A stretch of 14,720 bases of DNA from a virus (lineage: Duplodnaviria > Heunggongvirae > Uroviricota > Caudoviricetes), in IMG/VR virus record IMGVR_UViG_2877285697_000005; one strand, given 5' to 3'. The stretch's first letter is position 1. Each line of letters opens with the position of its first letter. Under the pieces are notes generated by a model. That model did no database searches. It was given only the letters and a program-made list of their open reading frames with translations, and was not told the origin of the DNA. Position numbers and translations under genes: made by a program. Shown here piece by piece: positions 11,399 through 14,720 of the stretch.

Positions 11399-11410
11399 TG
11401 AGGCTGTATG

Positions 11411-11453
11411 ACGGGGTGGGGGGCGTTTTCAGGACAAACCCGACCCCGCCGGG
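11411..11453. other. GC-rich imperfect inverted repeat upstream of terS, candidate cos region
   Basis: ACGGGGTGGGGGG (11411-11423) and CGACCCCGCCGGG (11441-11453) contain complementary CGGGGT/ACCCCG arms. Position between HNH and terS is where HK97-like phages carry cos. Not demonstrable from sequence alone. Confidence 0.25.
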
Positions 11454-11521
11454 CACCGAACGCCTCCTCAAATTTTTATGCACGGGAATTTTTTGAAAAA
11501 TAATCTGGCGAAAAAATAAGT

Positions 11522-13536: not shown

Positions 13537-13818
13537 ATGACAGAAGCCGAAATAACGGGATTAATCCGCCGCGTTGCCGGAATCAGCCAGCAGGCTGACG
13601 AACAGGCCACGCAGCCGGACAGCGTGACAGCCGAAAACTATGCGCGTGTTGTTGCTGAGGTGATGCGCCGTGATGGTATAGAACTTAATGGCGTGGATAT
13701 GCGCAACATACGAACCAGAGTTCTTGAGTTGCTGGCCTACCGTCGCCGCGTGGAGATGTATCGGGAGAAGGAGAAAATAACGTACCACTGGAAGAAGCCG
13801 GAGCGGTTGCGGCGGTAA
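13537..13818 (+). CDS. Hypothetical protein downstream of terL
   Basis: 93-aa ORF, helical and charged. No family recognised. Last gene before the palindrome-rich right arm. Confidence 0.45.
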   Translation: MTEAEITGLIRRVAGISQQADEQATQPDSVTAENYARVVAEVMRRDGIELNGVDMRNIRTRVLELLAYRRRVEMYREKEKITYHWKKPERLRR

Positions 13819-13873
13819 CTGGTTGATATTCCCGACGGACCAAAAATGGGTGGCTACATCCCTCGCTTCTGAG

Positions 13874-14376
13874 GACTGTTAACAAGCTGCCTGAAAGACA
13901 GTCACAAACTACGAAATTTTCGCAGTTTAATTAATGATCAGCTTAATCGCTAACCCGCTGATATTTTCGGAAACCTCAATTTGAGGAAGTCGGCGCGGTA
14001 ACTCGCTGAACTTTAAGCAAAGCGCAAAATTGCGCTTGCTGAATAATCATTATGATTACGCAGATGATTAAGGAATGACCGAAGGCGGAAATTCGCCTGT
14101 GGTTAATGGGGGAGTTGCAGATCTGCAACTCGACCATGAAACTACGGAAACTACCCGTAGTTTGGGTAGTAAGAGTAACACCCAGATTTTGGGGCTTACT
14201 CGTGATACCCAAATTTGGGGTATCAGTGGCAACCATAACGACTTTCGTTACGGTTGATGCTTTTACCCCATTGGGGGAAAGGTATTACGATAATCATAAC
14301 ACCTACCGAACAGGTAAAGCCCACCAGCCTGATTAACGTTTAACCGGAAAAAAATTCCGGTAGGTGGGGATCCCCA
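13874..14376. repeat. Non-coding right arm densely packed with inverted repeats and perfect palindromes
   Basis: GACTGT/ACAGTC (13874-13903); CCTCAATTTGAGG (13974-13986); AGCGCAA-AA-TTGCGCT (14021-14036); 18-bp perfect palindrome AGTTGCAGATCTGCAACT (14113-14130); overlapping alternative stems AAACTACGG/CCGTAGTTT and CTACCC/GGGTAG (14139-14169); CCCAGATTTTGGGG (14181-14194) and CCCAAATTTGGGG (14208-14220); CCGGAAAAAAATTCCGG (14344-14360); TGGGGATCCCCA (14365-14376). Confidence 0.6.
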
Positions 14377-14451
14377 TATCGACATTAACGCCCCTCATGA
14401 ATTGGTGCGCTTCCCCCTGGAAAGATGATCCGCCTGTATATTTCTTGTGTC

Positions 14452-14509
14452 TATTTGTTCCACGTTGTTTCATACAGTGCACCGAACGGTGTAGTCACTG
14501 GTGTAGTCA
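14452..14509. repeat. Repeat block near the right junction
   Basis: TATTTGTTCCACGTTGTT (14452-14469) shares the 15-mer TTGTTCCACGTTGTT with 6952-6966. Tandem GGTGTAGTCA at 14488-14497 and 14500-14509. Confidence 0.5.
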
Positions 14510-14555
14510 TTTTGCGATTTTTGGCACTTTTTGCGGTGAAAATTATTTAATTAAA

Positions 14556-14720
14556 TCAACGTGTTATGTGAAATAAGTTATATATAACAGCAATAAATAA
14601 TGCGAGAATAAACGGCACGATGATCTCGGCGGCAAAACGGATACCGCAGAGAATAATGACCAGCATTCCCAACATAATGACGATTTTTAGGCCATTGAGC
14701 GTGATGATCGGCTTTGCCAT
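14556..14720 (-). pseudogene. tqsA: Truncated 5-prime fragment of a host inner-membrane transporter gene, probably tqsA (ydgG)
   Basis: The minus strand from 14720 reads [46 protein letters not shown], which matches my recollection of the E. coli TqsA N-terminus. It then diverges (YNLFHITR) and stops after 54 codons. Identity rests on recalled sequence, no search run. Confidence 0.45.

Follow-up and report, generated by a model that had tools for sequence, protein, structure and literature searches.

Why should about 750 bp of apparently gene-free DNA at one end of a small viral genome be crowded with palindromes? The question is raised by IMG/VR record IMGVR_UViG_2877285697_000005 (Caudoviricetes), a stretch of 14,720 nucleotides that was analyzed as a whole and is here referred to as the window. 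An earlier note on its sequence had described positions 13819-14580 as a non-coding right arm too dense in inverted repeats for ordinary intergenic DNA, and had proposed a structured RNA, a riboregulator or a cluster of protein-binding sites (attP arm, partition or packaging signal). By gene content and comparison with complete Escherichia coli genomes, we assign the window to a capsid-forming phage-inducible chromosomal island (cf-PICI), a satellite integrated in the E. coli gene tqsA. The region in question is the tail of this satellite, which follows its last gene, the open reading frame (ORF) named ORF93. Our favored reading, whose chance of being right we put slightly below even, is that the tail has two parts, an attP arm and an array of hairpins that would serve as a barrier or insulator on the sense transcript. 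This function of the array is proposed from its observed anatomy, conservation, orientation and covariation.

Palindrome density in the tail

We counted inverted repeats with a perfect stem of at least 7 bp and a loop of at most 12 nt. Eight of them are present in 13819-14580, while 300 dinucleotide shuffles gave 0.55 +/- 0.72 and none reached eight; other 762-nt slices of the window hold 0-2. Moreover, 13810-14300 folded as a single strand has z-scores of -8.1 (+ strand) and -9.2 (- strand) against shuffles. The unusual density reported in the earlier note is thus real, but it is not spread evenly over the ~750 bp, since the palindromes are concentrated in 14020-14225, with one more at 14343-14361. 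The palindrome reported as 18 bp long belongs to a longer perfect one of 20 bp, GAGTTGCAGATCTGCAACTC (14112-14131). The one of 12 bp is CCCAAATTTGGG (14208-14219), and a second of this length, ATTTAATTAAAT, lies at 14545-14556. The two mutually exclusive stems are at 14139-14163 (AAACTACGG/CCGTAGTTT) and 14150-14170 (ACTACCC/GGGTAGT).

No convincing protein-coding gene was found in the region. Its small ORFs have no Pfam or PHROG match and their frames are broken in relatives; the 76-codon ORF at 14106-14336, for example, is interrupted by stop codons in related variants, as read from the alignments, and a hydrophobic 41-codon ORF (14425-14550) lies within the att arm. The region is not ordinary intergenic DNA of the host either, for tqsA of K-12 matches the window only from 14584 onward. 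Because host sequence resumes at that point, 13819-14580 is assigned wholly to the satellite, between its last gene and the att core.

An array of co-oriented hairpin modules

The sequence from 13816 to about 14300 is an array of short co-oriented modules, which holds most of the palindromes. In the repeated unit, a few bases separate a leader of about 19 nt (TAAC..G.TGATATT..CG) from a hairpin, after which GTCGGCGCGG often follows; the stem sequence of the hairpin varies and its pairing is kept. Three copies of leader plus hairpin are present in the window (at 13816, 13951 and 13999) and seven in the related element of strain EDL933. Unit 1 (13816-13853, + strand) has a leader, TAACTGGTTGATATTCCCG, that overlaps the stop codon of ORF93 and a degenerate hairpin of the HP-A sub-family, GGACCAAAAATGGGT. 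It is followed by small hairpins (13861-13922, +), namely CCTC-GCTTCT-GAGG (13861-13874) and CGAAATTTTCG (13912-13922), in a block common to the tails of EDL933, Shigella flexneri and RM10042. Unit 2 (13951-13998, +) consists of the leader TAACCCGCTGATATTTTCG, the hairpin CCTCAATTTGAGG (13974-13986) and GTCGGCGCGG, and unit 3 (13999-14041, +) of the leader TAACTCGCTGAACTTTAAG and an intact HP-A hairpin, AAGCGCAAAATTGCGCTT (14020-14037); the block 14000-14041 is found on its own in other genomes. Motif C (14039-14097, +) comprises the hairpin TAATCAT-T-ATGATTA (14044-14058), a second ATGATTA (14064-14070) and the hairpin GGCGGAAATTCGCC (14084-14097), and recurs in EDL933, Oki, 94-3024, KY174 and CB6837. 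After module M2, which is described below, come an imperfect hairpin, AACCATAACGA-CTT-TCGTTACGGTT (14231-14255), and CCCCATTGGGG (14266-14276), both in the + stretch 14231-14276.

The leaders are confined to tails and to the + strand. A perfect stem of at least 5 bp stands right after the leader in 24 of 36 distinct units, as compared with 2.7 +/- 1.6 in shuffled or coding controls. These stems represent about 10 unrelated sequences; 2 of the 13 stem/loop combinations in the unit survey were tRNA false positives. Hairpins of the HP-A sub-family, in which a variable stem is topped by a conserved CAAAAWTG, lie on the + strand in 47 of 49 tails. Among 47 related tails, the intact HP-A starts 19-20 nt past the stop codon in 27. 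The first stem pair of its 24 distinct instances is G-C in 14, T-A in five and C-G in four, and G.T exceeds A.C by 17 to 2 over pairs 1-5, although the instances share ancestry and these counts are not independent. When all tail hairpins are taken together, G.T and A.C are nearly equal (13 versus 10).

The tails of relatives are gene-free and range from ~370 to 1300 nt (0.4-1.3 kb). They are mosaics of a limited set of blocks, whose edges are sharp (14041/42, 14107/08 and 14229-31) and coincide with the module boundaries. In total, 1,326 of 5,426 E. coli genomes contain matches to the tail, and every locus inspected was located in a PICI. The modules are shuffled among E. coli PICIs by recombination. 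We also considered whether the units are fossils of the 3' end of ORF93, and this was unconvincing, with only 7/11 and 10/13 matches in GC-rich sequence.

The conserved module M2

M2 (14107-14229, +) is a block of 123 bp conserved across E. coli genomes. It contains the 20-bp palindrome (14112-14131), the alternative stems at 14139-14163 and 14150-14170, a stem at ~14172-14201, and a last hairpin, H4 (TGATACCC/GGGTATCA, 14203-14225). We found 803 copies, 692 of them nearly full-length, in 706 of the 5,426 complete E. coli genomes (13%), always downstream of ORF93 and co-oriented with it. At loci where ORF93 is only 80-85% identical, the identity of M2 is 91-97%.

The conservation among 35 distinct variants of M2 is mostly one of sequence, and two-sided compensation is confined to the last hairpin, where one pair is T-A in five, C-G in 27 and T.G in two variants, and another is A-T in 30, C-G in one and A.G in four. 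The 3' arms of the alternative stems were inside the exact retrieval pattern, so they could not vary in this set. Wobble-type changes are balanced between the strands (6 versus 5 sites), and the consensus folds obtained with RNAalifold are weak and different on the two strands. A Dam-dependent role of the GATC-centered palindrome is unlikely, as GATC is replaced by GATT or AATT in 9 of the 35 variants, and no copy of the palindrome half-site was found elsewhere in the element. Four IMG/VR contigs (L020, L040, L061 and L093) carry two M2 copies in the same orientation, ~435 bp apart.

Chi sites (GCTGGTGG) are far more frequent in the window than expected, with 14 exact matches in 14.7 kb (10 on the + and 4 on the - strand), whereas shuffles gave 0.40 +/- 0.58. 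A + strand Chi stands directly before M2 in many related tails, and the - strand Chi at 14321-14328 is conserved; both face inward around the palindrome cluster.

The attP arm at the right end

Mapping against the uninterrupted tqsA locus of K-12 (L004), as the earlier note had suggested, located the att core, ATAACAGCA, at 14584-14592. Here the element meets host tqsA (attR). The K-12 gene aligns with the window from 14584 on, and its match on the attL side includes the same 9 bp. The same sequence occupies positions 2007-2015 of our best-matching chromosomal locus, L001, and the core is therefore identical at attL and attR and occurs once in the empty site.

Arm-type repeats distinct from the core were found on both arms. 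The block TTGTTCCACGTTGTTTCA ... CGGTGTAGTCACTGGTGTAGTCA (14455-14509, +) has a copy in direct orientation on the opposite attP arm, immediately before int. It includes two GGTGTAGTCA repeats (14488-14497 and 14500-14509), of which two more copies lie at L001 2144-2165. A second copy of the 23-mer CGGTGTAGTCACTGGTGTAGTCA (14487-14509) is present between the attL core and the start codon of int (L001 2143-2165), and the longer direct repeat, TTGTTCCAnnTTGTTTCA...GTGCAnCGAnCGGTGTAGTCACTGGTGTAGTCA, extends over 14455-14509 of the window (~55 nt) and 2098-2165 of L001 (~68 nt). The core-proximal arm (14510-14583) has phased T-tracts (14510-14535), the palindrome ATTTAATTAAAT and a match to the consensus of integration host factor (IHF), AATCAACGTGTTA (14554-14566). 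Furthermore, the arms vary together with the integrase and not with the cargo. Between the tqsA element and the EDL933 element at phoQ, the integrases are 91% identical and both arms are conserved to ~25 bp from the cores, which differ; different repeats stand near att in elements at tRNA-Ile, at yejO or within the capsid gene of a prophage.

To the left lies a conserved block (14300-14385) with the exact - strand Chi match (14321-14328), a hairpin, ACCGGAAAAAAATTCCGGT (14343-14361), nested in CACCTACCG/CGGTAGGTG (14300-14308 / 14358-14366), and the palindrome TGGGGATCCCCA (14365-14376). Its assignment to the arm is uncertain, because it is common even to tails with other integrases. From this comparative anatomy, ~14300-14583, and most securely 14455-14583, is identified as the attP arm (attR when integrated) that a P4-type tyrosine integrase would bind. 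The attP arm proposed in the earlier note thus accounts for the right end, and not for the densest palindromes (14020-14225), which are outside the block of arm-type sites.

The satellite, its relatives and ORF93

Loci with 99.8% identity to positions 13700-14720 were found in 192 complete E. coli genomes. The best match, L001, belongs to O157:H7 strain PV15-279, where the island stands between the two halves of tqsA. The annotation of L001 lists an integrase, a helix-turn-helix regulator, an Icd-like protein, DUF4222, a primase, SSB and PerC, followed by the major capsid protein, an HK97 protease, portal, head closure and connector proteins, an HNH protein, TerS of the P27 family, TerL and a 93-aa hypothetical protein. 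A cf-PICI is an island of 10-15 kb with int at one end, an AlpA-type regulator, a primase/replication module with an origin (ori), and its own capsid, protease, portal, connector, HNH, TerS and TerL genes, without tail or lysis genes; this is the gene content indicated by the annotation of the 99.8%-identical L001. The element of EDL933 has the same gene order. It is the cf-PICI prototype EcCIEDL933 (O-island 51, OI-51, adjoining phoQ), which is reported to be induced by a helper, to form small tail-less capsids and to package exclusively itself (bioRxiv 10.1101/2022.09.08.507074).

At the other side of the core, the final ~140 bases of the window were found in 5,424 of the 5,426 genomes and are therefore host DNA. 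By comparison with K-12, 14593-14720 (- strand) is the 5' part of tqsA, interrupted by the insertion; the N-terminal fragment of tqsA (14556-14720, -) reads into the satellite and ends at a stop codon at 14556-14558, giving an ORF of 54 codons. The left 2.7 kb of the window is only 95.8% identical to its closest relative, while the remainder is 98-99% identical. Near the YlcI/YnfO-Icd region, a segment of ~180 bp has been replaced (window 2741-2916 versus L001 4958-5143), which points to further mosaicism within the regulatory module.

A search of the phage database at distant sensitivity gave no match to the tail, and matches in the plasmid database were limited to mis-binned chromosomal pieces or excised PICIs. 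No tRNA or tmRNA was found. One of the plasmid records is informative. NZ_CP148328.1 (L141; 10,790 bp, circular) was deposited as a non-mobilizable E. coli plasmid, yet it has a full PICI gene set, with int, alpA, primase, a capsid fusion, DUF1441 and ORF93, and it evidently looks like an excised circular PICI caught by assembly. In this circle, ORF93, the tail with M2, attP and int follow one another in the same orientation, and ORF93 and int are 721 nt apart. The tail is thus at once the upstream region of int and the 3' end of a long rightward operon.

ORF93 (13537-13818, +), the last gene of the satellite, encodes 93 aa and belongs to PHROG 1561; the tail is always 3' of it. Homologues of ORF93 precede similar tails in PICIs at phoQ, clpS, caiT, yejO, tRNA-Ile and prophage-capsid-gene sites, and the packaging modules beside them are of at least four kinds, including own TerS/TerL, the Rpp type (EcCICFT073), a Nu1-like TerS, and a ClpP-capsid fusion with DUF1441. 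An identical ORF93 is linked to three att sites (clpS, tqsA and phoQ), and all 10 sampled places with identical ORF93 (10/10) keep a gene-free tail of 800-1250 nt. The family is narrow (36 cluster representatives), with a conserved Arg-rich C-terminus, ...Y(H/Q)WKKPERLRR, here RRSQQRRESAKNTYQWKKPERLRR. The protein is predicted to be helical (pLDDT, the predicted local distance difference test score, of 70). The fold search gave no significant match and no recognizable DNA-binding fold, and ORF93 has no PDB or Pfam relative and no detectable homology to N. The possibility that ORF93 is an Rpp protein was rejected, as it has no sequence match in PDB although RppC has been solved; RppA is c1503 (PMC6739421).

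Known RNA, terminator, packaging and replication signals

The Rfam scan suggested in the earlier note lent no support to a known structured RNA. Rfam 15 gave no match in the whole window at gathering score, and the tail (13700-14720) searched at E <= 10 gave only chance-level hits with E > 3. The known small RNAs (sRNAs) of enterohemorrhagic E. coli (EHEC) were considered as candidates; Esr41 belongs to SpLE1 and the Pas sRNAs to Stx phages, hence they are not in this island. A scan for intrinsic terminators gave a single weak site (13804-13821), which is not at any of the palindromes. We also compared the units with nut sites. Their loops are AUU, AAAU, AAAA, AGC, AAC and GAC, the match to boxA is 6/8 by eye, and ORF93 has, as said, no relative in PDB or Pfam.

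The packaging or partition signal proposed earlier found no support either. The tail has no match to lambda cosN (GGGCGGCGACCT) within 2 mismatches, and matches in the window are at chance level. In EcCICFT073 the exact cosN is upstream of ORF93, where cos1 and cos2 have been defined experimentally (PMC6092414, PMC6739421). Iterons of the P4-alpha type, TGTTCACC, occur seven times in the window, five in the intergenic cluster 5406-5552 and two within the primase gene (4113 and 4818), with none in 13819-14592. This octamer is the one bound by the P4 alpha protein. The cluster at 5400-5565, just past the primase gene, is the probable origin of the satellite, and has five TGTTCACC in inverted sets around AT-rich DNA together with tandem GGTGAATAGTT repeats. 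In HNH-dependent cos phages, cos is located between hnh and terS. The corresponding gap here, between the HNH-associated ORF and terS (11399-11521), is the expected position for the cos of an HNH-dependent terminase, and it holds a G-rich inverted repeat, CGGGGTGGGG / CCCGACCCCG (11412-11448).

A possible role for the hairpin array and its alternatives

In the reading that we favor, the array would be transcribed as the 3' untranslated end of the rightward late operon, and its hairpins on the sense transcript would form a barrier to exonucleases and/or the elongating polymerase and protect the 3' end. In the excised circle, attP and the co-oriented int are immediately downstream, and the barrier would insulate them from late-operon read-through; in the integrated state, it would shield host genes from the same read-through. 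The conserved leaders may also supply homology for the exchange of integration and packaging modules. The array's part in this reading is supported by the excess of inverted repeats, the fold z-scores, the perfect stems next to the leaders, the restriction of the leaders to the + strand, the placement and pairing of HP-A, the compensation in the last hairpin of M2, the conservation of M2, the layout of the circle and the mosaicism of the tails.

Several points speak against it. Transcription of the tail is an assumption, and no palindrome is followed by a U-tract, the single weak terminator site being that at 13804-13821. G.T and A.C are balanced over all tail hairpins and in M2, and a defined-strand RNA is for this reason not demonstrated outside HP-A, whose instances share ancestry. 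In M2 it is chiefly the sequence that is conserved, also in loops and linkers, as would be expected of a protein-binding site or of a base-pairing RNA more than of a generic barrier, and the RNAalifold consensus folds are weak and discordant between the strands. Compensatory changes in palindromes can also come from template-switch "correction" without selection. Finally, the functional attP arm may have its left limit at 14300 or at 14455.

An unlikely alternative is that the hairpin modules are a cluster of operators in double-stranded DNA, palindromic and repeated, at which ORF93, the AlpA-type regulator, Int/Xis or a host protein would control int or attP recombination, or form a nucleoprotein structure. 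The sequence conservation of M2, unpaired linkers included, agrees with this, as do its four ACTAC/GTAGT pentamers (at 14141, 14150, 14157 and 14166), the 20-bp perfect palindrome that is invariant in 32 of 35 variants, the overall G.T/A.C balance expected under DNA-level constraint, the sequence-conserved 19-nt leader repeating about every 48 bp, and the position of the tail upstream of int in the circle. However, at least 10 unrelated stems and several loop types are seen in the hairpins that follow the leaders, so that a single protein would not recognize all of them; the palindrome motifs are nowhere else in the element, for instance not at promoters; M2 occurs with unrelated integrases and packaging modules; and ORF93 lacks a recognizable DNA-binding fold. 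We give a similarly low probability to the view that the tail is largely non-functional debris, that is, an empty 3' accessory (defense-gene) hotspot with recombination scars, fossil att arms, quasi-palindromes perfected by template switching and tolerated stuffer. PICIs are known to carry immune genes at their 5' or 3' ends (PMC11364771), and a helper-embedded relative (L007) has a convergent Abi gene at the site of the tail. The extreme mosaicism with sharp block edges, the tail length of ~370 to 1300 nt, the occurrence, within tails of one integrase type, of blocks that are typical of another (KY174 yejO) and the lack of an overall strand bias of wobble pairs fit debris as well. It is harder to reconcile with M2, which is more conserved than the adjacent coding gene and persists full-length or nearly so in 692 genomes, with the fixed distance of HP-A from the stop codon in 27 tails, and with the gene-free tails kept in all 10 places with identical ORF93 despite the size constraint of a small capsid.

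The remaining alternatives concern RNA and packaging. One or more modules, especially M2, may encode a discrete sRNA that regulates helper-phage, host or satellite genes, which we consider quite improbable. M2 is compact (123 nt), with sharp boundaries, several stable stems, one stem with compensatory change, and high sequence conservation, and it spreads independently of its flanks; a satellite sRNA has a reported precedent in the PICI-like element (PLE) of Vibrio cholerae (bioRxiv 10.1101/2022.04.08.487710). On the other hand, M2 has no Rfam family, no promoter-like site on its flanks and no intrinsic terminator after it, its consensus fold is weak and strand-dependent with balanced wobble evidence, and one review lists no sRNA for the homologous O-island 51 of EDL933 (PMC8565820). 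Still less probable is that the leader plus HP-A units, and perhaps M2, are cis-acting RNA elements bound by the Arg-rich C-terminus of ORF93, a satellite-specific RNA-protein switch resembling nut/boxB antitermination or sib-like retroregulation that would determine, in the excised satellite, if transcription of the late operon passes over attP into int. A packaging (cos/pac) or replication signal (ori, crr or single-strand initiation) might be suspected in hairpin-rich non-coding DNA that adjoins terminase genes and includes a Chi site, but it is largely excluded by the absence of lambda cosN, the position of cos1 and cos2 upstream of ORF93 in EcCICFT073, the inverted repeat in the hnh-terS gap, the location of all non-coding TGTTCACC iterons at 5406-5552, and the association of the same tail modules with three different packaging systems.

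Much horizontal transfer and phage defense in Enterobacteria is carried by PICI satellites, whose coding modules are well mapped. A gene-free tail of 0.8-1.3 kb takes up 6-8% of such a size-constrained genome. If the array does control read-through into int, this would explain how late transcription is uncoupled from integration, and exchange of modules would, if true, explain how identical packaging genes come to be at different chromosomal sites. In practical terms, the analysis places the att core of a cf-PICI that targets tqsA, together with the probable arm sites of its integrase.

Comparison with known systems

The satellite family and the architecture of the att arm are already known. 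The right end resembles the attP arms of P4-family integrases (P4, CP4-57 and other PICI/island integrases, with lambda attP as the general model) in having a short core common to attL and attR, direct repeats of arm type that differ from the core and stand on both sides, bent AT-rich DNA with an IHF-like site by the core, int-side sites just upstream of int, and arms that co-vary with the type of integrase. However, this model, with integrase binding presumed, fits only the last ~130-270 bp, and the dense palindromes are farther from the core than any arm-type site identified here. In the literature searched on cf-PICIs, PICIs, helper-embedded PICIs (HE-PICIs) and EHEC O-islands, the leader plus hairpin units, HP-A and M2 are not mentioned, nor is there a description of the gene-free tail.

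As to the array, the repetitive extragenic palindromes (REP) of E. coli at the 3' ends of mRNAs, with their bacterial interspersed mosaic elements (BIME), and lambda sib are similar in that short hairpins with GC stems are clustered and co-oriented 3' of the last gene of an operon without a U-tract; moreover, as in lambda sib, the structured region of the circle shares its transcript path across att with int. The tail has no sequence similarity to REP and is confined to PICIs in the loci inspected, and its hairpins are upstream of int in the circle, whereas sib is downstream; a role of RNase III or an exonuclease is hypothetical here. The units also look, by eye, like lambdoid nut sites, with a linear motif CGCTGATA (compare boxA, CGCTCTTA), about 10 nt and then a 5-bp GC-rich hairpin with an A-rich loop, in the company of the Arg-rich tail of ORF93. 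Unlike nut sites, they have tri- and tetraloops of several sequences rather than a GNRA-like pentaloop, they are in tandem at the 3' end of an operon, and homology of ORF93 to N was not detected. The tail shares with mosaic phage and satellite boundary sequences and accessory hotspots (P4/P2; PICI 5'/3') its location after the last core gene and before att, an extreme mosaicism whose breakpoints are short conserved motifs, and the defense-type Abi gene of one relative; in contrast to such hotspots, the window and the 10 places with identical ORF93 hold no gene there, only 0.8-1.25 kb of structured non-coding DNA. Compared with these systems, the attP part of the tail is ordinary, and the hairpin array is an unexplained, widespread and conserved non-coding feature of E. 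coli PICIs.

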